A DNA stretch of 64,000 bases from Elusimicrobia bacterium GWA2_51_34 (GTDB taxonomy: Bacteria; Elusimicrobiota; Elusimicrobia; Elusimicrobiales; UBA9959), in the NCBI GenBank assembly GCA_001799565.1, contig MGTS01000018.1:23344-87343 (forward strand), read 5' to 3'. The translations under genes and the position numbers were made by a program. This document shows, piece by piece, positions 5,759 through 63,396 of the stretch (positions are counted from its first letter, which is position 1; each line of letters starts with the position of its first letter). Under the pieces are notes generated by a model that was not told the DNA's origin, did not search any database, and saw only the letters and a list, made by a program, of their open reading frames with translations.

Positions 5759-5847
5759 AAAACACCCCGCTAATTAAAGTAAATTCAAAAAATAATACCA
5801 TTTTATTGATAAAGACCCTCGCCTTTATTGCACGGGCGGCGTAAACC

Positions 5848-7548
5848 ATGTCCGTATTTTATATAGAATATCGTAGCATGAAGAAACCCTCCGGACCCAT
5901 CCTCATCTGGCGAAAAGCGGCCGTCCTCGGCAGCCTCTGGGCGGCTTCGGAAATAGTGCTGGGCAGCTTTCTGAAGAACGCGCGCGTGCCGTTTTCGGGC
6001 GAATTCCTGACCGCTATAGGCATAGCGATACTGATAGCCGGGCACAGGCTTTGGCCGGAGCGCGGGCTCTTGTGGCGCGCAGGCTTTGTCTGCGCCGCAA
6101 TGAAATCCGTCTCTCCCAGCGCAGTTATTTTCGGGCCTATGTTAGCTATTTCCATGGAAGGTCTGCTGGCCGAGGCGGGGGTGCGGCTGCTGGGCGCAAA
6201 CCCCGCAGGCTACCTGTTGGGCGGCGGCCTTGCTATGAGTTGGCCCCTGGCCCACAAAGTGACAAAACTGCTCATCCTTTACGGCCCGGACACGGTTAAT
6301 ATTTACCTGCGCGGGGTAGAGTGGCTGCGCTTACATAGCGGTTTCGGACCGGGAACCACATGGGCTCCATTGATATTATTGTTTATGGCCTATTTCCTGG
6401 CGGGCGCGGCCGCGGCGGCCGCCGGAATGCGCGCAGAAAAAGAAAAGGCGTTTATTCAGGAACCTGCCGCGGATCAAGCGGCGTTTAAACCCCGTGACAT
6501 CAATCAAACTCCCGCGCGCGCATATTCCGCTGTGTTGCTTGTCTTTCACATATTATTTGTTTCGGCTGTAATGGCTGCCGGGAGTAAAATACCGGCAGCG
6601 GGCCTGCTGGTAACTGCAGGCGTTTATGGTTATTTTTGCGCGCGTTTTTATCCGCGCGCCCGATCGCTCCTTAAGCGTACAGGTATCTGGGCGGGCGTGC
6701 TGGCCGCTTCACTATTTGCCGGGCTTATACTGGGCAGCGCGGAGTCCGGTTTACACATGGCATTACGGGCTTTCACGCTTACGCTGGCTTTTGCGGCCAT
6801 CGGCTGCGAACTTATGAACCCGGCCATTCACGCGCGTCTGGAACGGCTTGGCGGCGGCATTTTCTTTGAAACTCTGGAGTACGCTTTCAACGCGCTGCCA
6901 GGAATAATTGCCGGACTTCCTTCCGGGCGGATTTTTGCCGGACGGCCATTGGCAGTAATAGGCGGGGCCGTGGCGCGCGCGCCGTTCCTGCTTGACGCTA
7001 TCTCGCAGGCTGCTCCGGTCTTTATAATAACCGGCGGCCGCGGCAGCGGCAAAAGCGAACTTGTTATAGAACTGGCCAAATTCCTGCGCGCGGCCGGCAA
7101 AAAGCCCGGCGGAATATGCGCCGCCGGCCTTTGGCAGAACGGCACGCGGACGGGTTTTGACCTTATAGATCTGTCTTCAGGAACGCGTGTGCCGCTGTGC
7201 CGCCGCGGGGCTTCCGGCGGAACCGCGGCAGCCGCCGGTGAATTCCGGTTTTTTAAGGAAGGCCTGGAAACCGGAATAAAGGCCCTTTCGCCTGAGAGTT
7301 TAGCCGGCGCGGACGCGGTTTTCGTGGACGAAATAGGCCCTCTGGAACTTGACGGCGGCGGCTGGGCGGAACCGCTTGAAGTTTTGCTTGAGAATCAAAA
7401 AGCGCCGCTGGTCATTGTCGTGCGCAACAGCCTGCTGGACAGGGTCCGCGCCCGCTGGGGACTCCTGGGCCGCGCGGTTATCCTTGAAACCGGCCGGATA
7501 TCAGCCGGCGATTGTTTTATTAAATTAAGCCGGTATTTTATACGATAG
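5848..7548 (+). CDS. Fusion protein: polytopic membrane domain plus C-terminal P-loop NTPase (DUF2478/THEP1-like)
   Basis: The N-terminal ~370 aa are hydrophobic and multi-TM. The C-terminus has Walker A (ITGGRGSGKS) and Walker B-like (VFVDEIGPLE) motifs. Confidence 0.65.
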   Translation: MSVFYIEYRSMKKPSGPILIWRKAAVLGSLWAASEIVLGSFLKNARVPFSGEFLTAIGIAILIAGHRLWPERGLLWRAGFVCAAMKSVSPSAVIFGPMLAISMEGLLAEAGVRLLGANPAGYLLGGGLAMSWPLAHKVTKLLILYGPDTVNIYLRGVEWLRLHSGFGPGTTWAPLILLFMAYFLAGAAAAAAGMRAEKEKAFIQEPAADQAAFKPRDINQTPARAYSAVLLVFHILFVSAVMAAGSKIPAAGLLVTAGVYGYFCARFYPRARSLLKRTGIWAGVLAASLFAGLILGSAESGLHMALRAFTLTLAFAAIGCELMNPAIHARLERLGGGIFFETLEYAFNALPGIIAGLPSGRIFAGRPLAVIGGAVARAPFLLDAISQAAPVFIITGGRGSGKSELVIELAKFLRAAGKKPGGICAAGLWQNGTRTGFDLIDLSSGTRVPLCRRGASGGTAAAAGEFRFFKEGLETGIKALSPESLAGADAVFVDEIGPLELDGGGWAEPLEVLLENQKAPLVIVVRNSLLDRVRARWGLLGRAVILETGRISAGDCFIKLSRYFIR

Positions 7549-7678
7549 CGTTTTAAAATTTAGATCTGAAATTTAGAAGTGGAATTTACTGTTAATAATG
7601 GTGAAACTGATATAATAGTGCGAATTACCCATTACGGAATTTGAAACACGAAGAGAAACCCAAAACGTGAAATAAATT

Positions 7679-8194
7679 ATGAACATAAACGACAAAATAC
7701 GGTTCATGGAAAACAATCTGGCCCGCCAGCTGGACTGGATACGGGCCGCCGACTCAAAAATAGCGCCCGTGATATTTATCACCACCTCAATGCTCGGCGC
7801 AAGCGTGGCCTTCCTTTCCAAAACGAGTGACCCTTCCGGGTTTACCCTGGCGCTCGCCGCGATATGCATAGGGGCGCTCATTTACACGCTGTCCTGCATG
7901 GTAATGGTAAATTTCCCGCGCATTACCCGCTATGACGAATCCGCCATCTTCTTTGAGGGCATAAAGTTTTCCGGCTTTGCGGGTTTTGAAAAAAAAGCGG
8001 GGGAAATAACAGAGGAAGCCTATTTCAGGGACCTCACGCGCATGTGCTATAACAACGCCATCATAGCCAGCGCCAAATTCAGCTATGTAAAAAGGGCCAT
8101 GATCTCTCTTTTTATAGCCATACTCCCCTGGATGCTGTTGGTTTACAATGTATTCCACTATGTAAAAATTGACGCGTTTCTTCAGGGAAAATAA
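7679..8194 (+). CDS. Hypothetical small membrane protein (possibly DUF5706 / Pycsar-effector-like TM domain)
   Basis: 171-aa ORF. QLDWIRAADSKIAPVIFITTSMLG is followed by further TM segments, and an AT-rich tract lies upstream. The family assignment is from memory of that domain's signature and is not verified. Confidence 0.45.
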   Translation: MNINDKIRFMENNLARQLDWIRAADSKIAPVIFITTSMLGASVAFLSKTSDPSGFTLALAAICIGALIYTLSCMVMVNFPRITRYDESAIFFEGIKFSGFAGFEKKAGEITEEAYFRDLTRMCYNNAIIASAKFSYVKRAMISLFIAILPWMLLVYNVFHYVKIDAFLQGK

Positions 8195-8284
8195 TGGACC
8201 GGGAAGTCCGGCCCTGACTTAATACTGTAAAGTCACTGCTTTCCTTATACCACTACCGCCCGTCACCCGCAGCCTGCCTTCTCA

Positions 8285-8314
8285 TTGACTTGCCTCACGT
8301 TCAATTAATATAAT
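8285..8314 (+). promoter_or_regulatory. Sigma-70-like promoter upstream of rpsO
   Basis: TTGACT (8285-8290), 18-nt spacer, TATAAT (8309-8314), about 40 nt upstream of the rpsO start. Confidence 0.55.
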
Positions 8315-8352
8315 AAATGAAAGACCAAAATTAAACTAAAGAGAGCGTAAAA

Positions 8353-8622
8353 ATGCCATTAACCAAGACAAAAACCAAAGAAGTTGTGGATAAATTCTCC
8401 GCGAAACCCAATGATACCGGTTCAATTTCAGTGCAGATAGCTCTGCTCACCGAAAGGATCCAGTATCTTTCAAAGCATATAACCGCTAATCCGAAGGACC
8501 ATTCCTCCGCGCGCGGTCTTTCCGTGCTGGTAGTCCAAAGGAAGACCTCGCTGGCCTATCTGAGCAAACACAACAGGGAAGCATACAAAAGCCTCATTAA
8601 ACAACTAGGCTTAAGGAAATAA
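8353..8622 (+). CDS. rpsO: 30S ribosomal protein S15
   Basis: 89 aa with the S15 signature GSISVQIALLTERIQYLSKHI...HSSARGL. Conserved rpsO-pnp synteny. Confidence 0.97.
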   Translation: MPLTKTKTKEVVDKFSAKPNDTGSISVQIALLTERIQYLSKHITANPKDHSSARGLSVLVVQRKTSLAYLSKHNREAYKSLIKQLGLRK

Positions 8623-8627
8623 CGACC

Positions 8628-10739
8628 ATGACAAACAATAACACAACCCGCCTTGAAGAAAAGGTGGGGGACGATGTAATTTCATTTGAAACAGGGGAGC
8701 TCGCAAAACAGGCCGGCGGCGCCGTGCTTGTGCGCCTTGGCGATACCGTAGTACTTTCTACCTGCGTACAGGCGAAAAAGCCCAAAGATAATCCGCCCGA
8801 GTTCGTGCCGCTCAGCTGCGACTACAAGGAGAAAACTTACGCCGCGGGCAAAATACCCGGCGGCTTCTTCAAAAGGGAAGGCAAAGCCCGCGAGAAAGAA
8901 GTACTGGGCTCACGCCTTACCGACCGCTCAGTGCGGCCGCTGTTCCCTAAATATTTCAACACCGAAACGCAGGTAGTTTCGGCCGTAGTGTCAAGCGACT
9001 GCGCCAAAGACGCGGATGTGCTTTCCATCAACGGCGCTTCGGCCGCGCTGATGATCTCGAACGTTCCCTTCAACGGGCCGGTGGCTGCGGTGCGCGTGGG
9101 CAAAGTTGACGGTAAATTAGTAATGAACCCCACCTTTGAGCAGCGTGAAAAGATCGACATGGAACTGGTGATATCAGGCACACTTCATGGCATATTAATG
9201 GTGGAAGGCGGGGGAAAAGAAATATCGAGCGAAGAGCTTATTTCCGCCATGGAAGCTGCCAGACCGGAAATTGAGAAGCTCTGCAAACTTCAGGTGGAAC
9301 TTCAGAAAAAATGCGGCAAGGCCAAAACCGCGGTATTGGCCCCGGTGATAAAGCCGGAAATAAAAGCCGCTGTTGAGCAAAAAGGCCGCCCGGCAATAGA
9401 CAAGCTTCTTAATTCGCATCCCACCAAAGAAGTGCTGGAAGCCACTATGAGCGAAGTAAAAGACGCTCTGGTAAAAGAAATGACGGAGAAATACCCCGAA
9501 GAAAAGACCGCCGCCTACCAGGTTAAAACCCTGATGGAAGACGTAATATACGAAGTGTCGCGCAAGCTGGTACTGAGCACCAAAATACGCACTGACGGCC
9601 GCAAACCCGACGAGATCCGCGCCATTTCCATGCAGGCCGGTTTCCTGCCGCGCACTCACGGCTCGGCGGTGTTTACCAGGGGCCAGACGCAGACACTCGC
9701 CACCGTCACTCTTGGTACCTCCGACGACAAGCAGATACTTGATGATTTAGAGGGGAGGTTCCTGGACCGCTTCATGCTGCATTATAACTTCCCGAGCTTT
9801 TCTACCGGCGAGGTAAAGCCCGACAGAGGCCCCGGACGCCGCGAAATAGGCCACGGCCACCTGGCAAAACGCGCTCTTAAGCCCCTGCTGCCGAGCGAAG
9901 ACGTGTTCCCCTACACCATACGCGTGGTTTCAGATATACTGGAATCAAACGGCTCATCCTCCATGGCCACGGTCTGCGGCGGCTCACTGGCGCTTTTTGA
10001 CGCCGGCGTACCCATGAAAGCCGCCTGCTCCGGCATCGCCATGGGCCTTATCACCGACGGCTCAAGCCATGCCGTGCTTTCGGATATCGCCGGCCTTGAG
10101 GACCATTTCGGCGACATGGACTTTAAGGTGACCGGCACAAAAAATGGCGTTACCGCATTCCAGATGGATGTAAAGCTGGCCTCCGGTATACCCATGAATA
10201 TCCTTAAGGAAGCCATAGAGCAGGCCTCCAGGGGCAGACTTCATATACTCGGGCTTATGGAGCAGCATCTGCCGGCTCCCAGAACCGACATGTCGGAATA
10301 CGCGCCCAGGATAGTAAAGCTCCAACTGCCTAAGGACAAGATAGGCGCTTTCATAGGCCCCGGCGGAAAGAATATCCGCGCCATCATAGAAAAAACCGGC
10401 GCTGACATTGAGGTGGAGGATGACGGCTCGGTGTTCATCTCCTGTACCGACAAGAAAGGCCTTGAAGAGGCCAAAACCATGGTGCAGTACTACACCATGG
10501 ATGTGGAAGTCGGACAGGTTTATACCGGCAGGGTGGTTTCCATACTTAACTTCGGCGCTTTTGTGGAGATACTGCCGGGCAAGGAAGGCCTGCTGCATAT
10601 TTCCGAAGTGGACACAAAGCGCATAAACCGCGTGGAAGATGTTTTGAAAGTAGGCGAAGAAGTGGAGGTCAAAGTAGTGGATATGGATAATATGGGTAAG
10701 TTCCGGCTCTCAAGAAGAGTGCTGCTGCAGGGAAAATAA
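8628..10739 (+). CDS. pnp: Polyribonucleotide nucleotidyltransferase (PNPase)
   Basis: 703 aa with two RNase PH domains, KH and S1 (GQVYTGRVVSILNFGAFVEILPGKEGLLHISE). Confidence 0.98.
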   Translation: MTNNNTTRLEEKVGDDVISFETGELAKQAGGAVLVRLGDTVVLSTCVQAKKPKDNPPEFVPLSCDYKEKTYAAGKIPGGFFKREGKAREKEVLGSRLTDRSVRPLFPKYFNTETQVVSAVVSSDCAKDADVLSINGASAALMISNVPFNGPVAAVRVGKVDGKLVMNPTFEQREKIDMELVISGTLHGILMVEGGGKEISSEELISAMEAARPEIEKLCKLQVELQKKCGKAKTAVLAPVIKPEIKAAVEQKGRPAIDKLLNSHPTKEVLEATMSEVKDALVKEMTEKYPEEKTAAYQVKTLMEDVIYEVSRKLVLSTKIRTDGRKPDEIRAISMQAGFLPRTHGSAVFTRGQTQTLATVTLGTSDDKQILDDLEGRFLDRFMLHYNFPSFSTGEVKPDRGPGRREIGHGHLAKRALKPLLPSEDVFPYTIRVVSDILESNGSSSMATVCGGSLALFDAGVPMKAACSGIAMGLITDGSSHAVLSDIAGLEDHFGDMDFKVTGTKNGVTAFQMDVKLASGIPMNILKEAIEQASRGRLHILGLMEQHLPAPRTDMSEYAPRIVKLQLPKDKIGAFIGPGGKNIRAIIEKTGADIEVEDDGSVFISCTDKKGLEEAKTMVQYYTMDVEVGQVYTGRVVSILNFGAFVEILPGKEGLLHISEVDTKRINRVEDVLKVGEEVEVKVVDMDNMGKFRLSRRVLLQGK

Positions 10740-10748
10740 GGAGCTTCA

Positions 10749-11249
10749 ATGAAGAAAACGAAGCAGGCGACTAAAACGGGCGGCCTTGAAACCGCTTTTG
10801 ACCAGGTGCGTAAATTCTACCAGTTCATGAATATAAACAAGCTGGAAGCCATAGAATTCGCTAAAAACGCGACCTATATAAAGCTGGTCCGTAAGCATAC
10901 CCAGACGGTTCAGCCTATACCTGTATTCTCCACCGTCCACCCGGCCCAAACGGGGGGCACATCGCAGCCCGCGGCCGCCAAGCCGCACCAGGCCGCACCG
11001 GCGCAGGCACAGGGAGAAACCATAAAGGCCCCTATGTCCGGCATATTCTACAGGGCGCCTAGCCCCGCAAGCCCGCCCTACGCGCGGGAAGGGGATCATG
11101 TGAAAGAAGGACAGGTGCTAGGCATAATTGAAGCCATGAAGGTATTCAACGAAATAAAGGCCGAGTTCAGCTGCGTGATAAAAAAAGTGCTGGTAGAAAA
11201 CGGCAAGCCGCTGGAACCCAATCAGGATATTTTCCTGATAACCAGGTAA
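10749..11249 (+). CDS. accB: Biotin carboxyl carrier protein (BCCP-type biotinyl domain protein)
   Basis: 166 aa with a Pro/Ala-rich linker and the biotinylation motif EAMKVFNEI. Confidence 0.8.
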   Translation: MKKTKQATKTGGLETAFDQVRKFYQFMNINKLEAIEFAKNATYIKLVRKHTQTVQPIPVFSTVHPAQTGGTSQPAAAKPHQAAPAQAQGETIKAPMSGIFYRAPSPASPPYAREGDHVKEGQVLGIIEAMKVFNEIKAEFSCVIKKVLVENGKPLEPNQDIFLITR

Positions 11250-11254
11250 TTGTT

Positions 11255-11482
11255 CCAATAGCCACAGAAAGCAACAGAAGGCAAAAGGATGCAACAGAAA
11301 GAGAACAATAGAGCAAATAGTCTTACCTGCACTTGCTTTCCGTAGCATTCTGTGGCCTTCAGTGGCTCTCGCAGTGGCAATAAAAAGCAACCGAATGCAA
11401 CAGAAAGTAAGAGCATGAAACAGTTTTCTTTCTTTCTTACTTTCAGTTGCTTTCCATAGCGTTCCGTAGCTTTCGGTTGCCA
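11255..11482. repeat. Dispersed hairpin repeat, GCAAC(T/C)GAA / CTTTCCGTAGC family (probably two adjacent copies)
   Basis: gcaaccgaatgcaacagaaagtaagagc...cttactttcagttgctttccatagcgttccgtagctttcggttgc. Same family as 4105-4240 and 36232-36410. Confidence 0.7.
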
Positions 11483-11496
11483 TTTGGAGAACTTTT

Positions 11497-11709
11497 ATGG
11501 AAGATACCGCAAAATTCACCGATGCCGTGGCTCAGAACGCGGCTAAAATCCTGGAGCTGCTCAAAGCCGGAGAAAACACCTCGTGGGATCTGAAATTAAA
11601 ACTGCATCTTTCAAGCTCGGCGCTCTACCTGGCGCTCGGGTGGCTGGCAGCCCAGGGCAAGGTGGCCCTGTACCCGCAGGATTTGAATTTCAAGATAAGG
11701 GTTCTCTAA
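11497..11709 (+). CDS. Small hypothetical protein, possibly winged-helix (DUF2582-like)
   Basis: 70-aa ORF. The length and pattern are compatible with small wHTH proteins, but support is weak. Confidence 0.4.
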   Translation: MEDTAKFTDAVAQNAAKILELLKAGENTSWDLKLKLHLSSSALYLALGWLAAQGKVALYPQDLNFKIRVL

Positions 11710-11716
11710 CTCCGGA

Positions 11717-11824
11717 CAGGTAGACAGAAGTCAGTAGCCAGAATTCAGAATGGCCTGCAGACAGACATCTGACAGTTTAATAACTCCACATTCTGACTAC
11801 TGAATTCTGGCTTCTGACTACCTG
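11717..11824. repeat. Word-repeat hairpin, TCAGAAG/TCAGTAG/TCAGAAT word family
   Basis: caggtagacagaagtcagtagccagaattcagaatgg ... cattctgactactgaattctggcttctgactacctg. Confidence 0.7.
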
Positions 11825-11854
11825 CACAATTACAGTTCTTCCTGGAAACTTACA

Positions 11855-14161
11855 ATGCGGGAACCGATAAAGCATAAATTCGCCTCGGCGCAGGCGAAAA
11901 AAAAGACCTCCACCCTCTCCTACGCTATTTATTGGCTGATATCACTGGCCCTCAGTATATGGCTTATCTGGATAGCCTTCTCCGGATCGCGCGGCGGCAT
12001 AGTAGGCGGCAAGGTCCACGAAGGCCTCTACAATTTCTTCGGCTTCTCTTCCTATTTATTTCCTTTCCTGCTTTTATACGGGCTGGCGGCCATACTCATA
12101 AAAATAAACAAGCCTCATAAAGGCATCCTGACGCTGGCGCTGGGCATAGTATTGATACTGGGAGCTATTTCCGCGGAACTCGGCCTTATCTTCCCGGTAA
12201 GCGAGCACTCGGGATGGCTCGGCTATGCCCTGTCGGGGATGCTTTCAAAGATGTTCGGCGACGTAGGAGCGGCCCTCGGGGGCATAGTGCTGTTAATTGC
12301 CGGGGTGCAGCTGCTGTTTAAAATTTCCTGGCGCAAAGCGCTTAAAAAAATATCGTCGGCGCTCGCGGACGATTACCGTAACTGGACAGCGGCCAGAAAA
12401 GAGTTAAAAAGCAAATTAAACCTTGTTACGGAAAAAGAAAAAAGCGAGGGGCCTTCCTACGACGCCAAACCCATAGCTGAAACCCCGTTCCCGCCGGAGG
12501 GGGGGGCGCCGGAACGCGCGGAACCGCAAATAGTGCGGGCAAGCGCGGAACCGCCGGCCAAAACCCCCGCGGGAAAGAAGGCCAAAACGGAAGAAGATCC
12601 CGCCGGACCGGGCAGAACCGCCCTGGCTGGAAGCCTCAAAACGCCCTCAAACCCCAGGGATTCTTATTTCAAAGATTTCAAGCTCCCTCCGCTTGATCTT
12701 TTAGGCGCTCCCACGGAACAGGGCTTTATCGGGCCCACAAATGAAGAGATCAACGATTCCAAGGTCCTGCTGGAAAACACTTTCAAAAGTTTCGATATCG
12801 CGGCCCATGTCGCGGGAGTGTATCCGGGTCCCGTCATCACCCGCTACGAGATAACCCCGGATCCCGGAGTTAAAATAAGCTCTATCGTTTCACTTTCTAA
12901 CGATGTTGCGCTCGCCATGAAATCATCGGGAGGCATAAGGGTAATAGCGCCTATCCCCGGCAAATCGGCCATCGGCTTCGAGATCCCGAACGTGCGGCGC
13001 GCCAAGGTTTCGCTGAGAGAGATAATTGACAGCGCCTCTTTTAAAGCGAGGAAAGAACCGCTCGCCTTCGGCATAGGCCGCCACGCCGAAGGCTCGGTAG
13101 CCACCGCCAACCTTGAAACCATGCCGCACCTGCTGGTTGCCGGCGCGACCAATTCCGGCAAGAGCGTCTTTTTGCAATCCCTTATACTTTCTCTGATCTA
13201 CCGCAATACCCCAGACGAAGTGAAATTCCTTTTTATAGACCCCAAACGTCTTGAGCTGACTTTTTACGAGGACATCCCCTACCTCTACGACCCCACGGAA
13301 ACCCCCGACCGCGTGTCGGTGATCACCGACCCGAAAGACGCGGCCAAAGCGCTGGTGGCGTTAACGCGCGTGATGGAAAAACGCTATGTCAAATTCGAGC
13401 GGGCCAGGGTAAAGAACATCGCCTCCTACAATAAATGGGCTCTCACAAACGGCGAACCCACCGAGCACTATGTGGTGGTGGTTATAGACGAACTGGCCGA
13501 CCTTATACTGCAGATGAAAAATGTGGTGGAAGACGCGATACAGCGCCTGGCCCAGATGGCTCGCGCCGTGGGCATACATCTGGTGCTCGCCACTCAGCGC
13601 CCCTCCGTGGATATAATTACCGGGGTTATAAAGGCCAACCTTCCCACAAGGGTAGCTTTACAAGTGACCTCAAAAACCGACTCGCGCGTTATTCTAGACA
13701 CTCCGGGCGCCGAATCGCTTATCGGCTGCGGCGACCTGCTTTATCTCGCCATAGACGCGCAAAAGCCGGTCAGGATACAGGGCGCCTACGTTTCCGAAGA
13801 AGAAATAAAAAAAGTAGCCGACTTTATACGGGCGCAGGCGCGGCCGCATTATCAGCCGCTGGTTGAAGAAGAAACTAACGCGGCCTCCGGCAAGGGTGGC
13901 AGTTCTGAAGAGCTGCTTACGGCCCTTCGCCTGATACACGAGCGGAAGCGGGTGTCGCAGGATCTGCTTAAAGCCCATTTCGGCTCTTCGTCCCGGGCCA
14001 CTAATATTTTAAGCATACTTGAAGTGAACGGCTTTATTCACAAGCCGGAAGGCTCAAACCGCTGGGAGATATTTTTTGACAAGATAGAGAATCACCTGAA
14101 CGCCAACGCGGTCCCCGCGCAAACCCCGCAAGACCCTTCCGTAGACAAGGAAACAGCGTGA
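11855..14161 (+). CDS. ftsK: DNA translocase FtsK
   Basis: 768 aa with N-terminal TM segments, a Pro-rich linker, the motor domain GATNSGKS / VVVIDELADL / LATQRPS, and a C-terminal gamma-like domain. Confidence 0.95.
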   Translation: MREPIKHKFASAQAKKKTSTLSYAIYWLISLALSIWLIWIAFSGSRGGIVGGKVHEGLYNFFGFSSYLFPFLLLYGLAAILIKINKPHKGILTLALGIVLILGAISAELGLIFPVSEHSGWLGYALSGMLSKMFGDVGAALGGIVLLIAGVQLLFKISWRKALKKISSALADDYRNWTAARKELKSKLNLVTEKEKSEGPSYDAKPIAETPFPPEGGAPERAEPQIVRASAEPPAKTPAGKKAKTEEDPAGPGRTALAGSLKTPSNPRDSYFKDFKLPPLDLLGAPTEQGFIGPTNEEINDSKVLLENTFKSFDIAAHVAGVYPGPVITRYEITPDPGVKISSIVSLSNDVALAMKSSGGIRVIAPIPGKSAIGFEIPNVRRAKVSLREIIDSASFKARKEPLAFGIGRHAEGSVATANLETMPHLLVAGATNSGKSVFLQSLILSLIYRNTPDEVKFLFIDPKRLELTFYEDIPYLYDPTETPDRVSVITDPKDAAKALVALTRVMEKRYVKFERARVKNIASYNKWALTNGEPTEHYVVVVIDELADLILQMKNVVEDAIQRLAQMARAVGIHLVLATQRPSVDIITGVIKANLPTRVALQVTSKTDSRVILDTPGAESLIGCGDLLYLAIDAQKPVRIQGAYVSEEEIKKVADFIRAQARPHYQPLVEEETNAASGKGGSSEELLTALRLIHERKRVSQDLLKAHFGSSSRATNILSILEVNGFIHKPEGSNRWEIFFDKIENHLNANAVPAQTPQDPSVDKETA

Positions 14162-14916
14162 TTAAAATTATTTTAAGCGCGGCGCTCGCTCTAACTCTGT
14201 GTCCGGCGGCTTTCTCACAGCCAAAAAAGAAAACGGCTCCGGTTAAAAAAGAGGCGGCCGCCGTTGTTTCCACGGCCGCCGCGAAGTCCGTCTTTCACGC
14301 GCCGCCTGAAAATAAGCAAAACGGCCTGTCCGGCATGGCAATCGGCGGGCTTAAAAACTGGGACGCCAAACTTGAAACCTTAAGCGCCTCCTTCACGCAG
14401 GAAGTGAATTTTTCCGAAGCCGGGCTTAAGCAAAGCGTGGAAGGGGAACTGAAATACTCAAAGCCTAATTTTCTAAGAATTGAACATTTTAAGCCGGCAC
14501 GGCAGGTAGTGGTAACCGATAAACACGACATCTGGATCTACAAGCCCGAGGACACGCAGGTTATTAAAACTTCATGGGAAGCATGGCGCAAAACACAAAG
14601 CGATAACTTCTCAGGCATACTTGACTTCGGCAATTACTCCGCGCTCACTGAAAAAAACAACACTGTGGTTTCGGGCCGGACTCCCGCTCACCCCTGGATA
14701 ACGGTGGTTTTCACTCCCAAGGCGAGTCCGGGACAATACATTCTTTCACTTAAACTTTCGGCCACGGATTATTTTCCGCTGGAGGCCGAGCTTACTGTAG
14801 ACAAGACCTCCATTAAAACCAGGCTTTCCGGAGTAGAAATAAACAAGGCGCTCTCGCCTGAACTGTTCAAGTTCAGCCCGCCCAAAGGCACGCAGGTGCT
14901 GGAATTCAAAAATTAA
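14158..14916 (+). CDS. lolA: LolA-like outer-membrane lipoprotein carrier protein
   Basis: 252 aa with a signal peptide and LolA-like beta-rich sequence. The GTG start overlaps the ftsK stop. Confidence 0.65.
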   Translation: MIKIILSAALALTLCPAAFSQPKKKTAPVKKEAAAVVSTAAAKSVFHAPPENKQNGLSGMAIGGLKNWDAKLETLSASFTQEVNFSEAGLKQSVEGELKYSKPNFLRIEHFKPARQVVVTDKHDIWIYKPEDTQVIKTSWEAWRKTQSDNFSGILDFGNYSALTEKNNTVVSGRTPAHPWITVVFTPKASPGQYILSLKLSATDYFPLEAELTVDKTSIKTRLSGVEINKALSPELFKFSPPKGTQVLEFKN

Positions 14917-14945
14917 GGAGTAAAATCAGAAGAGATATGTGATCT

Positions 14946-14978
14946 CTTGCTTGTGACCTGTGACTTGCAGCTTGTGAC
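14946..14978. repeat. 33-nt dispersed repeat (copy 1)
   Basis: cttgcttgtgacctgtgacttgcagcttgtgac. Its reverse complement recurs at 43703-43735 with one mismatch (manual alignment). Confidence 0.85.
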
Positions 14979-14983
14979 ATGAT

Positions 14984-15616
14984 ATGACCCTATCCAACAA
15001 AATCACCATGAGCCGGGCCTTTTTGAGCCTGCTTATTTTTGTATTAATAGTTTACCGCACCCTCTGGTCGGAGCTGGCCGCTCTGGCGCTTCTTACCGCG
15101 GCCAGCATTTCAGATTATTATGACGGTGAGATAGCCCGCCGCACACGGACCATAACGCCATTTGGAGCCATAGCCGACCCTTTCGCAGACAAGATACTGG
15201 TGATGGGTGTTTTTCTGGCTTTCGCTTCGCTCCGGGAGCTTACCGTGCCGCTTTGGGCGGTATTCCTGATACTTCTTCGCGAACTCACCATCTCCACCCT
15301 TCGCGTAATTGCGGCACTGCGGGGGGAAGTGATGAAAGCGGAAATAGCCGGAAAGTTTAAAACCACCGTACAACTAACCTCCGCGTTCATTATACTTGTA
15401 GTGTTAATAATCAAAGTATGGGCCGAAACACACATCCTGCCGGCGGCTTTTTTATCGCTTACGGTCAGCCACGCCGGACAAACCGCTTACTGGCTTACGG
15501 TATTTACCGCTTTGGTAACGGTTATAAGCGGAGCCGTTTACCTGTATAAACACCGTGACCTGCTAATAAAATCCTGGAACGATAAAGGCCCGGGGGGAGA
15601 AGGGGCAAGGGAATAG
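14984..15616 (+). CDS. pgsA: CDP-diacylglycerol--glycerol-3-phosphate 3-phosphatidyltransferase
   Basis: CDP-alcohol phosphatidyltransferase motif DYYDGEIARR...GAIADPFADK, with multiple TM segments. Confidence 0.88.
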   Translation: MTLSNKITMSRAFLSLLIFVLIVYRTLWSELAALALLTAASISDYYDGEIARRTRTITPFGAIADPFADKILVMGVFLAFASLRELTVPLWAVFLILLRELTISTLRVIAALRGEVMKAEIAGKFKTTVQLTSAFIILVVLIIKVWAETHILPAAFLSLTVSHAGQTAYWLTVFTALVTVISGAVYLYKHRDLLIKSWNDKGPGGEGARE

Positions 15617-15661
15617 AGGAAAAAACGCTGAAATCTGAAGCGCTTCAGCTCCGGGAATGTC

Positions 15662-16156
15662 ATGACAGATTTCAAAAACACGGCCGCCAGATTTTTAGCC
15701 AGCGGATTTTACATAAGCTACATACCGGCGGCGCTCACCAGGTCTAAAAAATTCACCGGATCGGGCCTGTTCGGCACGGCCCTTGGCCTGTTGCTGGCGC
15801 CCCTGTTGCCGGCGGATCCCCTGTCTCTCCTGGTTTTCCTCATACTGTTTTTTTTCTTTGCCGTCTGGACGGCCGGGATCGCCGAAACCTCATACGGCGT
15901 GCACGACGACCCGCGCATAGTCATAGACGAAATTCTGGGATACTGGGTAGCCATCGCCTTCCTGGATAAAACTTTTTTTAACCTTGCGGCGGCTTTCGTT
16001 TTTTTCAGGACACTTGATACCCTGAAGCCCTGGCCCATAGGGAAGATAGACCGTATGGCAAGCGGGGGTTTTGGTATAATTGTAGACGATATCGCGGCCG
16101 CCGTTGCGGCTAATTTACTTGTAAGGGTTTTAACACTGATTGCTATCGCACTATGA
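15662..16156 (+). CDS. pgpA: Phosphatidylglycerophosphatase A
   Basis: 164 aa with the PgpA-type motif DDPRIVIDEILGYW...FRTLDTLKPWPI. Confidence 0.85.
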   Translation: MTDFKNTAARFLASGFYISYIPAALTRSKKFTGSGLFGTALGLLLAPLLPADPLSLLVFLILFFFFAVWTAGIAETSYGVHDDPRIVIDEILGYWVAIAFLDKTFFNLAAAFVFFRTLDTLKPWPIGKIDRMASGGFGIIVDDIAAAVAANLLVRVLTLIAIAL

Positions 16157-17067
16157 ATTTTTTGATTTTAATTTTCCTGGTCCTGCCGGCGGCTGCGCCG
16201 GCAGGAGCGCAAATGATGCAGGTGATACCGGCCGCAAGTACCGCCGCCTTCTCCGAAGGCGCCGCGCTCTCAAGCGCGACAGCCCTGGCGCCGGCTAAAG
16301 CGAAAGCGGGCCAGCCCTCAAAACCGGCCCAGTACGAGGAAACAAAAATGCCCCTGAGCGGCATAGTTCTTACGCCAACCGCCTACCGCGGGCGGGGGAA
16401 AAACTCCATCGGCCTGGGGTTGGATTTTAACGCCGCTTACTATATAGGCCGCCTTTACGGCAAAAACACATACGACTGGACCACCACTAAAACCAATTAT
16501 CTGGACCGCGTCGGCCTTTGGCTGCTCACCGCCGACGCCAAAATGCTCATTCAGACCGAGGGACGCTGGCGCCCGGCCGTGGCCTCCGGCGTACAGGGCA
16601 TTTTCCAGTTTCGCGATTCGCCGCAACCGACCCTCAACCAACCCACTGTTTCCGTGAAAGTGACCGGTAAAAACACCAATACCTACGCCAACGCTTATGT
16701 GGTTCTCACTAAGCGCCTGCACCCCAAATTCCTGTTAAACGCCGGCTACTCCGACGGCGATATGCCGAAAGTGCTCTACCAGATGTCGGAATTCCTCTCA
16801 AAAGAGGCGTTGAACCTGAACGGCCATACCAACCCCGCTATGGTGACCGGCACGCTTTTCGGCGGTTTTATGTGGCTGCCTAAAAAGGATTCCGCCATAG
16901 GGGCCGAGTTTATCATCCCGCAGGGTGCCGTCCAAAGCCCGAAACTTATAAATTTGCATCTTGGCACGCTTCTTAAACTGAATTTTGAAATATCGTACCT
17001 CTCCTTCAAGGGCGGCTGGGATCTTCTCGGCATGTTCCAGTTCCGCTATAACTACTTCCCGCGGTAA
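16153..17067 (+). CDS. Hypothetical secreted / outer-membrane protein
   Basis: 304 aa with a signal peptide (LPAAAPAGAQ), beta-rich composition and an aromatic-rich C-terminus. Confidence 0.5.
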   Translation: MNFLILIFLVLPAAAPAGAQMMQVIPAASTAAFSEGAALSSATALAPAKAKAGQPSKPAQYEETKMPLSGIVLTPTAYRGRGKNSIGLGLDFNAAYYIGRLYGKNTYDWTTTKTNYLDRVGLWLLTADAKMLIQTEGRWRPAVASGVQGIFQFRDSPQPTLNQPTVSVKVTGKNTNTYANAYVVLTKRLHPKFLLNAGYSDGDMPKVLYQMSEFLSKEALNLNGHTNPAMVTGTLFGGFMWLPKKDSAIGAEFIIPQGAVQSPKLINLHLGTLLKLNFEISYLSFKGGWDLLGMFQFRYNYFPR

Positions 17068-17070
17068 AGA

Positions 17071-17166
17071 CAGTAACCGGTAACCAGTATTCTGTGACCG
17101 GTAAAAAAATAATTTCCGCTCTCTGATTACCGGATACTGGATACCGACTACCGGTTACTGGTTACT
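17071..17166. repeat. Word-repeat hairpin (CCGGTAAC / CCGGTTACTGG words) between convergent genes
   Basis: cagtaaccggtaaccagtattctgtgaccggtaa ... ttaccggatactggataccgactaccggttactggttac. It overlaps the stop of the minus-strand gene. Confidence 0.65.
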
Positions 17167-19398
17167 CTTGGCTTCCTGCCTCATCCGCTTCAGGTAATAC
17201 GCGGCTTCTTTGTGGGAGGGGTCTATTTTCAGGGTTTCAACAAGCTCGGAGTAAACGCGCTTCGGGTCCTTATTCCAGTAAAGCACGGCCATATTGTAAT
17301 GCGCCTGGGCAAAACCGGGGTTGGCTTCCAACGCTTTGATGTAAGCTGCTTCAGCCTCCGTGGAACTGCCGGTTTTTTCAAGAGCCACGCCGTAGTTAAG
17401 CCAGGCGTAAGCGCTTGAAGCGGCAAGACCGCTTTTAAGCGAGTCAAGCGAATGGTACTCGGAACTTAACTCAAGCAGGCGGGCGTAAATTTCAGCCGAC
17501 GCCCTGAAATTTTCACCCGCGCGGCGCCAGTCGCCTTTTGAAGAATAATAAAAACCGGCGTATAGCCGCGCGTCCGGAATATCGGGGTCAAGCCGCGCGG
17601 AAAGTTCAAGGCCTTTTAAGGCCTCAGTGTCCTGCGAAGAAGAAGTGTTTAAAAACGCGGCCCTTGCCACCAAAGCCTGGGCGTATGAAGCGCCGAGATC
17701 CCTGTCAAAAAAATCATGGTAGGAACCGCCGAAAAAACGGAAATTATAAAACGGAAGCGGATAAAAAATATCGGCTGCCACGGCCGGGGCAGCTTCGCTT
17801 ACCGATAGCTTCACAGGACCATGTCCCTTCGAAGCTCCGTCCGCCTTAGGCGGAGGAGCGAAGAAGGATGTGTAAAGCGCGCTTACAAGCCCCGCCGGCA
17901 CGGCAGGCACTTTTGCCGGCAGCTCCGCGTCAAGCGTTGCGTAAAGCCCGCCGCTGTTCGCCGCGGCGAATGCGCGCCACTCGCTTTCGCCGCCTGAATG
18001 CAGGTTGTAAAGGGCGAGCCCCGGGCTGTAAAGACGTTTTGTATTACGGTACCAGGGCGAAGCGCTGAGTCCCTGCGCCACCACCGAAACATCCGGCCTT
18101 ATTTTTTCAACTGTCTGCGCGTACCACAAAGAAAAAAGCTGCACGTCTTTTTTTGCGACAAGCACTCCGCCCGGCGGCACGGAACGGAGCGCGTCAGAGG
18201 CGTAATCACCGGCCGCGAAAAGATCCCGCCTGTCGGCGCGCGGAAAATTAAGGTAAAAGGCCCAAAGGGCCGCCCCAGCGGCCGTCATAACGACCAGCGG
18301 CAAAAACCGCCTGAATCTTTCTCCCATATAAAACAACCCGGAAGCCGTCCAAAAGAGAACCGCCAGGTCCGGCAGCAGGTAATAGGGTTCCACTATGGCG
18401 AGCGCGTGGGGATTTGGCGGCATATTGCCCATAAAAAGGAAAACCGGCCCGGCTAAAACAAAAAGGGCGGCCACCGCTAAAAACCGCTTTTTATGAAAAT
18501 AAAATTCCACGCAAAGCCCTGCACAGGCGGCCAAAAGGGCCAGGTTGAAATTAGCCAGCAAATGGAGCGCGTAATACTTCAGATTCGGCAAAAACAGCTC
18601 GCCCATAAAATAATTTCTGGAGATTAAGTCCAGCGTTGAACCGTAACTTTTGCGCGTGACCACGGAAAAAAAGGAAGCAAGATCCGCCGGATGACTCCAG
18701 TCAAAAAGCGGGTTAGAGGCGGAGCGCACCGGCAGATAAAGATAAAGCGAGAAGCCGAGCGCGAATAGTCCGGAAACTTTAAGCAGATTAGCGGCCCAGG
18801 CTCCGCGCCAGGCGTTTTTAAGCGCCGGGAAAATTAAAATAGCGGCAGCCGGAAAAACAAAAACTATGTCCATGCGATTGGTCATGGAAAACCCGGCCAA
18901 AAAAGCGAGCAGAAAACACTTTTGTTTTGCATATTCCCTTTCAATATCAAAGGCCAGGTATAAGAGCAGACAGGCCAGCAGGGTATTCAGCGCGTACATT
19001 TCCGAAACGCCGGCGACGGTCCAGAAAGTAAAATTAAATCCCAGCAGAACTGAGGCCGCCACGGCGCTTAAAGGTGAAAATAAAGCGCTTAAAAACCCGT
19101 AAAAAACCATTATCGCGCCAAGGCCGGCGGCCGCGGAAAAAAGATTCATCGCCCAGGCGAAATTGCCGGGCGCGATCATTGTAAAAACGCGGGCGCTCAG
19201 GGCATAGAGCGGATACCCCGGCTGATGGGGCACGCCAAGACTGTACGCGTCACAAGCCATTTCTCCCGCGTCGCGGTAAGGGGCAAGGCCGGGAGGAAGA
19301 CAATAGATATAGAGCAGCGTAAAAAAAACGAACAAAAAGGCTCCGCAGGCAAATTTCAGGCGATATGAGGTTTGTTTTAAAGCGGGCGTGAATTCCAT
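17155..19398 (-). CDS. DUF2723/TMEM260-like polytopic membrane glycosyltransferase with C-terminal TPR repeats
   Basis: 747 aa. The N-terminal multi-TM region carries YRDAGEM, and the C-terminus has TPR-like repeats (AEAAYIKALEANPGFAQAHYNMAVLYW). Confidence 0.65.
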   Translation of the reverse strand: MEFTPALKQTSYRLKFACGAFLFVFFTLLYIYCLPPGLAPYRDAGEMACDAYSLGVPHQPGYPLYALSARVFTMIAPGNFAWAMNLFSAAAGLGAIMVFYGFLSALFSPLSAVAASVLLGFNFTFWTVAGVSEMYALNTLLACLLLYLAFDIEREYAKQKCFLLAFLAGFSMTNRMDIVFVFPAAAILIFPALKNAWRGAWAANLLKVSGLFALGFSLYLYLPVRSASNPLFDWSHPADLASFFSVVTRKSYGSTLDLISRNYFMGELFLPNLKYYALHLLANFNLALLAACAGLCVEFYFHKKRFLAVAALFVLAGPVFLFMGNMPPNPHALAIVEPYYLLPDLAVLFWTASGLFYMGERFRRFLPLVVMTAAGAALWAFYLNFPRADRRDLFAAGDYASDALRSVPPGGVLVAKKDVQLFSLWYAQTVEKIRPDVSVVAQGLSASPWYRNTKRLYSPGLALYNLHSGGESEWRAFAAANSGGLYATLDAELPAKVPAVPAGLVSALYTSFFAPPPKADGASKGHGPVKLSVSEAAPAVAADIFYPLPFYNFRFFGGSYHDFFDRDLGASYAQALVARAAFLNTSSSQDTEALKGLELSARLDPDIPDARLYAGFYYSSKGDWRRAGENFRASAEIYARLLELSSEYHSLDSLKSGLAASSAYAWLNYGVALEKTGSSTEAEAAYIKALEANPGFAQAHYNMAVLYWNKDPKRVYSELVETLKIDPSHKEAAYYLKRMRQEAKSNQ

Positions 19399-41897: not shown

Positions 41898-42045
41898 CGG
41901 AGAGGAAGGGATTCGGGCACAGCTCTTCGGTTCGCCGTCGCTCACCTCAGGCCGCGACCCCGGCTCGCGGTTTCACCTGTTGGTTCAACAACGCTCCGCC
42001 TTTCGAATCCCTACGCGAAGCAAGCAGTTGCTTCGCTTCCTCTCC
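41898..42045 (-). ncRNA. tRNA-Ser-framed structured RNA-like element (148 nt). Acceptor and T-stem arms copy the adjacent tRNA-Ser and enclose a conserved core.
   Basis: The 3' 18 nt are identical to the tRNA-Ser 3' end (C56 to G73). The 5' GGAGAGG equals the tRNA-Ser acceptor 5' strand. Hairpin gcgaagc-aactgctt-gcttcgc. The ~90-nt core aligns without gaps to 63166-63313. Confidence 0.6.
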
Positions 42046-42085: not shown

Positions 42086-42094
42086 AAAAAGCTT

Positions 42095-42184
42095 CGGAGA
42101 GGAAGGGATTCGAACCCTTGATACGAGTTTACCTCGTATGCCGGTTTAGCAAACCGGTGCCTTCAACCACTCGGCCACCTCTCC
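42095..42184 (-). tRNA. tRNA-Ser (anticodon GCU), class II with long variable arm
   Basis: Manual cloverleaf: GGAGAGG acceptor, D-arm GCC/GGC, anticodon loop UUGCUAA, variable arm CAUACGAGGUAAACUCGUAUC, T-arm AAGGG-UUCGAAU-CCCUU, discriminator G. CCA is not encoded. Confidence 0.93.
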
Positions 42185-42211
42185 ACTTTAAATCGTTATC
42201 CAATTTGAAGA

Positions 42212-42314
42212 CGAACCCTTGATACGGGTTTAGCAAACCGGTGCCTTTCCGCCACTACGACTTTGGCGGACCCGCCACCGCTGTAATGGCGGGCAACCAC
42301 TCGGCCACCTCTCC
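42212..42314 (-). pseudogene. Truncated tRNA-Ser(GCU) copy with a 47-nt twin-hairpin insertion in the D-loop. It lacks most of the variable arm and the 3' T-stem/acceptor strand.
   Basis: Matches tRNA-Ser from G1 through the D-arm, anticodon arm (same GCU loop) and AAGGGUUCG. The insertion at 42248-42294 folds as tccgcca-N9-tggcgga and cccgcca-N9-tggcggg. Confidence 0.75.
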
Positions 42315-62583: not shown

Positions 62584-62678
62584 TATAAAGAAGAGATTAC
62601 GGTGATAGAGAAGCGATTACAGCGATAATAAGAAACTGCTCAGTCCCGCTTTGTCATTGCGAGCGGTAGCGAAGCAAT

Positions 62679-62713
62679 CTCAGTCGCGGACAGTCCGCCT
62701 AAGGCGGACTCGC
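62679..62713. repeat. REP-like hairpin, TCCGCC-TAA-GGCGGA variant (inverted relative to 52224-52257)
   Basis: ctcagtcgcggacagtccgcctaaggcggactcgc, preceded by gtcattgcgagcggtagcgaagcaatc. Confidence 0.6.
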
Positions 62714-62835: not shown

Positions 62836-63154
62836 TACCCCCATCAGGAATCGGCCACAGGTTCTCGGGCCGCCGTCGCGGCCCTCGCCCTTCGGCCACA
62901 GCTCGCGGTTTCGCCTGCTGGCCTGATTGCCTGAATTGTGTCCATAGCAGTCCTCTGGAAGCCCAGTCCACCCAACACCGCTCCGCTTTTCGATTCCTGA
63001 CGTGAAGACCGGCTTTAGAGCGAAACATAATTATGTTTCGCGTCCGGTCCGCAAGGGCGGAGGCGTCCACATCAGGCGAACGCCGAGCCGGGGTCGCGGA
63101 AAACCGCTATGCGGTTTATCCGTGACAGCCAAGCAGTTGGCTCGCTATGGGGCC
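62836..63154 (-). ncRNA. tRNA-Arg-framed structured RNA-like element, expanded and partly degenerate copy (319 nt)
   Basis: Has the same arm layout as 63166-63313. The core has a ~50-nt expansion, and ~120 extra nt lie between the T-stem 5' strand and the conserved hairpin. The acceptor 3' strand carries one substitution. Confidence 0.55.
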
Positions 63155-63165
63155 ATGAAAATTCA

Positions 63166-63313
63166 TGCCCCCATCAGGAATCGGTCACGGGTTCCCGGTT
63201 CGCCGACGCTCACCAGGCCCCGCGACCCCGCCTCGCGGTTTCGTCTGCTGACTCAACATCGCTCCGGCTTTCGATTCCTGACGCGAGACAAGCAGTTGTC
63301 TCGCTATGGGGCC
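63166..63313 (-). ncRNA. tRNA-Arg-framed structured RNA-like element (148 nt)
   Basis: The 3' 18 nt are identical to the tRNA-Arg 3' end (C56 to A73). The 5' GGCCCCA resembles the tRNA-Arg acceptor 5' strand. Hairpin gcgagac-aactgctt-gtctcgc. The core aligns without gaps to 41898-42045, and an 11-nt spacer atgaaaattca separates it from the tRNA. Confidence 0.6.
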
Positions 63314-63324
63314 ATGAAAATTCA

Positions 63325-63396
63325 TGCCCCCATCAGGAATCGAACCTGAATTACCTGCTTAGAAGGCAGGTGCTCTATCCATTGAGCTATGGGGGC
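63325..63396 (-). tRNA. tRNA-Arg (anticodon UCU)
   Basis: Manual cloverleaf: GCCCCCA acceptor, D-arm GCUC/GAGC, anticodon arm CCUGC-CUUCUAA-GCAGG, T-arm UCAGG-UUCGAUU-CCUGA, discriminator A. CCA is not encoded. Confidence 0.93.

Follow-up and report, generated by a model that had tools for sequence, protein, structure and literature searches.

Two head-to-tail copies of a structured repeat lie behind the tRNA-Arg(TCT) gene on contig MGTS01000018.1 of Elusimicrobia bacterium GWA2_51_34, and a third copy lies behind the tRNA-Ser(GCT) gene in the same 64,000-nt stretch of DNA (contig positions 23,344 to 87,343; hereafter the window). On the minus strand the array reads tRNA-Arg, an 11-nt spacer, unit 1, an identical spacer and unit 2. 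The segment considered here is this second unit, of 319 nt, and the array belongs to a previously uncatalogued family of tRNA-linked structured repeats. Unit 2 has been invaded, between its H1 hairpin and its T' arm, by an inverted element of a sister subfamily (type B), and one of its hairpins is expanded by 49 nt. A preceding reading of the DNA made without database searches (the sequence-only reading) had placed a second Arg-armed unit of 319 nt head-to-tail after the same spacer, and its coordinates and strings proved correct.

The Arg array and the element within its second unit

A type A unit, of which unit 1 is the canonical example, consists of a conserved core of ~135 nt, with helices H1, P3/P3b and P4/P4b, set inside a closing stem that is specific to the locus. 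The 3' strand of this stem reproduces the upstream tRNA exactly from C56 of the T-loop to the end, often continuing into the trailer; the 5' strand is antisense to this tail copy and is interrupted by H1, the loop of which (CAACTGCTTG) is invariant. The 3' arm of unit 1 (CGATTCCTGATGGGGGCA) matches the last 18 nt of tRNA-Arg at 18/18 positions and that of unit 2 at 17/18. The tRNA 3' end and the 5' arm of the unit form an inverted repeat centred on the palindromic spacer, and in unit 1 the tRNA end, spacer and 5' arm together constitute an exact direct repeat of 43 nt. A TATAAT box can be read directly on the minus strand 12–17 nt 5' of the start of tRNA-Arg, and no terminator separates the tRNA from the units. 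Single-sequence folds of the three units of the window are much more stable than those of shuffled sequences (z = -7.1, -5.1 and -4.9), the first value being that of unit 1, which has a minimum free energy of -84.8 kcal/mol.

In an alignment of the three units, unit 2 exceeds the frame of unit 1 by 49 nt in the P3b hairpin and by ~122–125 nt after H1; the ~50-nt core insertion and ~120 extra nt noticed from the sequence correspond to the 49 nt and to ~122 nt in this alignment. The conserved blocks reported as retained are indeed kept, every quoted string being present in unit 2, and within the window these blocks are confined to the three units. R1, the type A covariance model, recognizes unit 2 over positions 62844–63016 (64.5 bits, E 2e-12). 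Relative to unit 1, an otherwise invariant P3 pair has changed from G-C to A-U and a P4 pair from U-A to C-G, and since these two compensatory double changes keep P3 and P4 paired, they indicate that the fold is under selection. Unit 2 is therefore not decaying: its type A core scores 64.5 bits despite the 49-nt expansion and carries compensatory changes. A blastn comparison of the expansion with all loci fetched gave no second copy, the only matches being this organism's own copies; the candidate explanation of the expansion as another repeat was thus ruled out.

The longer insertion is a full-length type B member on the opposite strand. R2, a model derived from independent metagenomic relatives, matches positions 62996–63131 of the plus strand over its full length (135.9 bits, E 3e-36), and R1 matches 63017–63136 of the same strand (37 bits, E 2e-6). 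The segment had been read as an inverted fragment of the element's own core. Its inversion and its membership of the element family (R1, 37 bits) stand, and what is inverted is a complete type B element and not a fragment. Two features singled out earlier lie inside it. The perfect palindrome gcgaaacataattatgtttcgc (63020–63041) is present and is the H1-equivalent hairpin of the inverted element. The 16-mer CGAGCCGGGGTCGCGG (63084–63099) had been assigned to a central hairpin, an assignment that fails because covariation places it across the junction of helices P3 and P4. With up to two mismatches the 16-mer has three matches in 64 kb, all inside units (exact in the Ser unit on the minus strand, exact at 63084–63099 on the plus strand, and with one mismatch in unit 1 on the minus strand), against a mean of 0.14 in shuffled sequences, so that it is not a common genome-wide GC hairpin, as the sequence-only reading had allowed it might be. 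Contigs from unrelated soil, sediment, ice and wetland samples show ~90% identity to the insert segment only, and ~92% identical contigs occur in four metatranscriptomes.

Table 1. Positions of the array, of the Ser locus and of related features (window coordinates unless a locus is named).
Feature	Position	Strand	Basis
tRNA-Arg(TCT), array head	63325-63396	minus	ARAGORN; Rfam tRNA 75.3 bits
Spacer copy 1, 11 nt, tgaattttcat on minus (atgaaaattca on plus)	63314-63324	minus	direct reading
Unit 1, canonical type A, 148 nt	63166-63313	minus	R1 138.4 bits, E 2e-28
Unit 1, 5' arm	63306-63313		
Unit 1, H1 hairpin, loop CAACTGCTTG	63283-63304		
Unit 1, T' arm	63272-63281		
Unit 1, core	reaching 63184		
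Unit 1, 3' arm	63166-63183		
Spacer copy 2, same 11 nt	63155-63165	minus	direct reading
Unit 2, type A frame with two insertions, 319 nt	62836-63154	minus	alignment; H1 pattern match
Unit 2, 5' arm	63147-63154		
Unit 2, H1, end of 3' strand replaced	63124-63145		
Unit 2, T' arm	62991-63000		
Unit 2, 3' arm with one C>T change	62836-62853		
49-nt P3b expansion of the unit 2 type A core	62921-62969	minus	alignment
Complete type B element GTGAAGACCGG...CCGTGAC, inverted within unit 2	63002-63126	plus	R2 and R1 matches
Ser-armed type A unit	41906-42043	minus	R1 129.1 bits; 25-nt exact repeat from T-loop C56
tRNA-Ser(GCT) upstream of the Ser unit, then its terminator hairpin	42094-42185	minus	
Pseudo-tRNA-Ser, tRNA 5' part with indels	42212-42314	minus	alignment; blastn-short
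Larger scaffold holding a type B copy, L046	L046:1960-2230	minus	
Larger scaffold holding a type B copy, L052	L052:2800-3080	plus	
Further scaffold-borne type B copies	L041, L047, L049, L064		

Just downstream of the array, at 62648–62684, lies a short hairpin-like sequence, gctttgtcattgcgagcggtagcgaagcaatctcag, which reaches contig depths of 5,500–19,000 in groundwater and sediment metagenomes and shows lower peaks, of ~85–165, in a further two runs; it is apparently a short repeat that occurs ubiquitously and is common to many organisms.

Fold, subfamilies and linkage to tRNA genes

The fold of type A was examined in 23 sequences on a hand-drawn structure comprising H1, P2, P3/P3b and P4/P4b, with 500 shuffles and with slid versions of the structure as controls. 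Paired cells amounted to 85%, compared with 68% in the shuffles and 34–40% in the slid controls, and cells with double changes numbered 200, compared with 68.5 and 26–75, respectively. On four of five measures the observed covariation was reached by 0/500 shuffles. The column pair 43-81 occurs in all four Watson-Crick forms, and the unpaired blocks CAACUGCUUG, CGGAGCG and GAAACCGCGAG are invariant. Covariation of this strength indicates a fold under selection and units that are not just debris. A central hairpin CCGCGA...TCGCGG was rejected as the conserved fold, as it is lost in GGTGGCCAG variants and has the covarying pair 43-81 inside its supposed loop, and a hammerhead-like reading of GCGAUG...GAAAC was ruled out because type B lacks these blocks. 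At one Paceibacterota locus (L018:96–130, minus strand) the 3' end of a unit is followed by a hairpin, the loop of which, CAAGCAGUUG, is the exact complement of the H1 loop CAACUGCUUG; it could be a kissing-loop partner or an inverted H1.

A scan of 185,579 species genomes with a pattern of two core blocks outside the arms yielded 34 loci, ~22 of them clear type A homologues, in Paceibacterota, Moraniibacteriota, Gribaldobacteria, Saccharibacteria, Elusimicrobia and two 'Bdellovibrionales' assemblies (metagenome-assembled genomes). Paceibacterota STD1_112 carries five or more copies at different tRNAs in one genome. Where a tRNA is nearby, the unit stands just downstream of it on the same strand in 20 of 21 cases, at a distance of 5–54 nt, and the tRNAs served are those for Leu, Val, Arg, Ser, Tyr, Ala, Glu and Asp. 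In 15 of 19 scorable units the longest exact repeat shared with the tRNA begins 18–20 nt before the tRNA end, at C56/G57 of the T-loop; the repeat extends to the tRNA end or at most 25 nt beyond. The arms are wholly different among the Arg, Ser, Val, Leu and Tyr copies, each fitting its local tRNA, and the centre is conserved. Two arrays close with partial last units, holding a tRNA tail, spacer, 5' arm and part of H1 (L029:5000–5060 and L015:3090–3170, both minus), that of L029 abutting a terminator hairpin. At the gathering threshold and at E<=10, Rfam 15 found only tRNA in the window, in ten type B loci and in L046; its curated families, including group I and II introns, transfer-messenger RNA (tmRNA), T-box and small ribozymes, gave no match. 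ARAGORN reported no tmRNA in the window. No published description of the family was found in full-text literature, including by its invariant blocks, although this does not prove the family undescribed.

When metagenomes were scanned with a pattern derived from the insert, 39 type B loci were obtained, with a consensus of ~125 nt (GTGAGGCCCGG...CCGTGAC). RNAalifold applied to type B alone recovers the same helices as in type A, the homologous pair covarying as G-C, C-G and A-U, and since the models of the two types match each other at 30–60 bits, types A and B form one superfamily. The type B helices contain 66 G-U pairs and 5 A-C, so that the fold belongs to one strand only. Where type B is linked to a tRNA, it is antisense to it at 10/10 loci, the window included. 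Nested and tandem arrangements recur: in L042 tRNA-Val is followed by an A unit and then a B unit, each ending in the tRNA tail with CCA and GATTT, and in L065 tRNA-Val, a 5' arm, an intact H1, a T' arm, an inverted B and a 3' arm follow one another with no A core. Because the position of B differs among the type A frames of the window, L042 and L065, independent events are implied. In L066 the tRNA-Leu trailer and terminator recur as a 45-nt direct repeat on either side of B.

The other 29 of the 39 type B loci lie away from tRNAs, several of them in a larger, hairpin-rich and conserved scaffold (...CAAACCCUCACGGAA...UGAGUGRRGAGUG...CACGUGUUUGCG...) that is closed by long locus-specific inverted repeats of 19–29 bp and matches no Rfam family. 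B occupies alternative hairpin loops of this scaffold in L052 and L046, the L052-type hairpin being 'empty' in L046. Two B copies lack H1 (L045:3536–3646 and L067:1555–1667, both minus), their P2 stem being closed by a tetraloop, GGCCCGG-CAGU-GCCGGGCC, so that H1 is dispensable in type B. Type B at ~90–95% identity occurs in metatranscriptome contigs from sediment, ice, wetland, soil and wastewater (runs X22, X23, X25, X26 and X30–X43), which, as unstranded contigs from other organisms, suggests that type B is transcribed in many habitats. A role of type B as a 5' leader or riboswitch was ruled out, the downstream genes and their orientation being inconsistent; a GlnRS gene does follow the L046 copy, apparently by coincidence.

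The Ser locus bears on the T-loop boundary. The 3' end of the Ser unit corresponds to the last 19 nt of tRNA-Ser and 6 nt of its trailer, and a second terminator hairpin, similar to that of the tRNA, follows directly after the unit. Upstream, the intact tRNA-Ser is adjoined by a pseudo-tRNA-Ser whose D-loop has gained 45 nt and whose variable arm carries a deletion. Its likeness to tRNA-Ser ends exactly after G57 of the T-loop, and the tRNA-identical arm of the Ser unit begins at C56. The pseudo-tRNA-Ser represents the other side of this C56 breakpoint; cut at G57, and with the unit arm starting at C56, the locus reads as a tRNA-Ser copy split in the T-loop, with leader, intact tRNA-Ser, terminator and element all between its two halves.

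Evidence for mobility and alternative explanations

No integrase, transposase, HUH or reverse transcriptase domain was found among the window's open reading frames (ORFs) tested against Pfam (42 ORFs, with precomputed matches for the rest; six ORFs had no Pfam match), which agrees with what had been concluded from the letters. All matches but one noted below were to housekeeping proteins, such as PNPase, FtsK, GroEL, glutamine synthetase and Ser/Thr kinases, with TonB/ExbBD, LolA and Sua5 as further matches. The units, 148–319 nt long, have no ORF of their own. All-against-all clustering of ORFs from 24 type A and 39 type B loci revealed no shared neighbour protein, only spurious ORFs overlapping the element and unrelated housekeeping genes (ABC transporters, AlaRS, penicillin-binding protein, tetratricopeptide repeat proteins). 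Pattern scans of IMG/VR and blastn against PLSDB and INPHARED returned no viral, phage or plasmid copies. Targeting of the IS91 type was considered and rejected: the H1 loop does contain CTTG and the T-loop GTTC, but the junctions show an offset of 2–3 nt and are absent in L066. Elsewhere in the window, an ORF of 171 aa (7679–8194, plus strand) matches the Pycsar effector transmembrane domain (PycTM, E 8.5e-10) and, by this match, may be a fragment of an anti-phage system.

The tandem amplification noticed at first sight raised the question of whether the array varies in length. In seven independent assemblies a 977-bp region across the array, including both units, is 100% identical, and in runs X1, X2 and X4 the unit-1 unitig stands at the depth of its flanks. 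In runs X5/X6, from one groundwater sample, a 710-nt contig joins 63140 to 63300 and skips exactly 159 nt, or one period; the depth over the body of unit 1 is zero, and nothing of at least 97% identity covers it. This is a one-unit allele, tRNA-Arg followed by unit 2, seen at 4.8x coverage only. It could be the state before entry of unit 1 or a deletion between the 43-nt repeats.

We consider the chances about even that the units are non-autonomous elements that enter tRNA genes at the T-loop, by a mechanism that we infer from the architecture of the loci. Recombination, or copying, by a factor encoded elsewhere would carry out the entry, the element having no gene of its own, and would leave an intact tRNA, the element and a displaced 3' fragment of the tRNA, as kilobase-scale tRNA-targeting islands do. 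The antisense arm would supply pairing with the target, and the folded strand, in type A the one co-transcribed with the tRNA, would be the substrate recognised. Units of an array would be gained or lost by repeated entry or by recombination between the 43-nt repeats. Mobility is supported by the T-loop breakpoint visible from both sides at the Ser locus, by the different places of B in type A frames, by its alternative scaffold loops, by the 45-nt direct repeat of L066 and by the shorter allele of X5/X6. The sequence-only reading had likewise proposed a mobile or recombinogenic element, of which the multi-copy nature, the many tRNAs with fitting arms, the closely similar cores in several phyla and the nested and tandem copies elsewhere (L042, L065) are borne out; movement itself is deduced, and the units are more than the debris that such an element leaves behind.

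Several observations weigh against this interpretation. Neither an enzyme, nor an excised form, nor an unambiguous empty site was seen, and the viral contigs, phage records and plasmids searched held no copy. The array is identical in the seven assemblies of the source organism, and the shorter allele comes from one sample, at a depth of 4.8, where a deletion between the 43-nt repeats fits equally well. The partial end units of L029 and L015 are equally compatible with plain tandem duplication, and a classical integrase would explain neither the antisense arm nor arms that match about ten different tRNAs. Finally, strong purifying selection on the fold also fits a cellular RNA with a function of its own.

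Such a cellular non-coding RNA is the alternative that survives best, although we regard it as somewhat unlikely. It would ride on tRNA transcription, its tRNA-like closing stem, a mimic of acceptor and T-stem, being processed by tRNA enzymes and the freed core binding protein or RNA; arrays would be gene duplications and the B insert an accident. The position of type A on the tRNA strand (20/21, gap 5–54 nt), the lack of a terminator in the Arg array, the strong covariation with invariant unpaired blocks (CAACUGCUUG, CGGAGCG, GAAACCGCGAG) and the presence of family sequences in metatranscriptome assemblies all accord with it, and the E. coli analogue rtT has been reported to be tied to processing of the tyrT transcript (10.1101/2024.07.17.603846). 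However, the homologous type B is always antisense to the tRNA and so cannot derive from transcription of the tRNA. In the Ser locus, tRNA and unit are separated by a strong terminator hairpin, and the closing stem there extends 6 bp past the acceptor into the trailer, which makes it a poor substrate for RNase P and RNase Z. Moreover, a housekeeping RNA needs no arms retailored to each tRNA, nor does it readily account for the five or more copies at different tRNAs in Paceibacterota STD1_112.

A bolder form of the T-loop entry model, which we think unlikely, supposes that the core is an RNA acting on nucleic acid, whether in the manner of a ribozyme or by guiding a trans-acting enzyme, and that the family is a programmable, gene-less, tRNA-targeting mobile RNA. 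Pairing between the replaceable 5' antisense arm and the final ~18 nt of a tRNA gene or transcript would set the 3' end of the core (GUGAC) at T-loop position 55/56, where the element would copy or insert itself. It would have spread over Patescibacteria and Elusimicrobia as well as further uncultured lineages, and E. coli rtT would be analogous to it in function.

That the unit is a cis-acting switch controlling tRNA maturation is, in our estimate, very unlikely. The antisense arm would pair either with the 3' part of the tRNA, causing it to misfold, or with its own 3' arm, and the choice between the two pairings would be made by the conserved core in response to a ligand or protein. Such a switch would suit the three-segment geometry of tRNA tail, antisense arm and second tail, in which tail, spacer and arm form a near-perfect hairpin (in Arg ATGGGGGCATGAA-TT-TTCATGGCCCCAT; in Ser the stem encloses the terminator), as well as the constant match of the arms to the neighbouring tRNA; riboswitch aptamers have a similar closing-helix design, a likeness that counts in its favour. 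It leaves unaccounted for the tandem copies, the antisense B, the B copies distant from tRNAs (29/39) and the sharp boundary at C56, and no association with a ligand or gene function was found, the genes downstream of B being mutually unrelated. Inert by-products of local duplication, arising by replication template switching at palindromic trailers and having neither function nor mobility, are highly improbable: arrays do end in partial units, and tandem-inversion duplications resemble the direct-inverted-direct tRNA tail with its palindromic junctions (spacer, terminators), but the explanation is already contradicted by conservation across phyla, the same ~135-nt core with its invariant blocks and compensatory changes standing beside different tRNAs in several of them, and by the full-length sister element within unit 2.

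Relation to known systems and significance

The closest known system, by analogy and not by membership, is the rtT (RttR) RNA of the E. coli tyrT operon (RF00391). There too, non-coding units lie directly behind a tRNA on the same strand, head-to-tail in ~3.1 copies and with one copy between tyrT and tyrV; each unit of ~178 nt has the final ~19 nt of tRNA-Tyr (AATCCTTCCCCCACCACCA) as its 3' end, a multi-hairpin core is closed with the help of an antisense arm upstream, GGGGAAGGAT, and the array ends in a partial copy. In E. coli K-12 (NC_000913.3, 1286200–1287800) GGGGAAGGRTGAG...AATCCTTCCCCCACCACCA is found in the rtT/tpr repeats behind tyrV and likewise in the tyrT-tyrV spacer, which indicates a closing stem of antisense arm and tRNA tail there as well. 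Homology was rejected, as R1 gives the E. coli locus 6.6 bits (E 0.25) and the Rfam RtT model has no match in the window at E<=10. The E. coli repeat differs in beginning 2–3 nt later in the T-loop and in having neither an H1-type invariant loop nor an antisense sister subfamily, and rtT is known from enterobacteria only. Compared with rtT, the present family is far more widely distributed, its fold is well supported and its hairpin loop invariant, and it includes nested copies and a sister subfamily in antisense.

Islands that integrate into tRNA genes are described as leaving the tRNA intact and placing a displaced copy of its 3' portion at the far end of the element (PMC4383910), and a T-loop attB is reported for Ms6 (PMC1762012). 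The units resemble islands of tyrosine integrases in the intact tRNA with displaced 3' fragment, in the T-loop breakpoint (C56/G57; G57 in the pseudo-tRNA-Ser) and in tandem stacking. They differ in measuring 130–320 nt and not kilobases, in having no integrase within or beside them and no cargo, and in combining an antisense copy of the target, a covarying folded core and about ten tRNAs in one family. With miniature inverted-repeat transposable elements (MITEs) and REPINs they share being short, non-coding, multi-copy, intergenic, hairpin-forming, gene-less and able to nest. Whereas those elements have conserved termini or stems and a variable middle, the centre is conserved here and the stem is copied from the local tRNA; membership was rejected because there are no shared terminal inverted repeats, the arms differing between copies while the centre is conserved. 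Group II introns, with their exon- and intron-binding sites (EBS/IBS), and the bridge RNA of IS110 are conserved folded RNAs with a replaceable target-complementary segment, a likeness that concerns a possible mechanism only. Unlike such guide-bearing mobile RNAs, the present family has no Rfam match, intron domains or adjacent recombinase or reverse transcriptase gene, and its arms pair together in the integrated copy.

The tRNA-linked repeats of E. coli tyrT have gone unexplained for decades, and the family described here, unrelated and far more widespread, has the same architecture. It offers dozens of natural variants at different tRNAs, in two orientations, in nested and partial copies and with a well-supported fold, so that the bracketing by sense and antisense tRNA tails is now approachable by comparative genomics and simple RNA biochemistry. 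Because Rfam lacks it, thousands of assembled genomes currently carry it without annotation or with spurious ORFs called in its place. If the elements are mobile, they would target tRNA genes in a novel manner, with no enzyme of their own, and their naturally retargeted arms would be relevant to programmable insertion. If they are instead cellular RNAs, they would be a conserved, abundant and unannotated RNA of the genome-reduced Patescibacteria (candidate phyla radiation, CPR).

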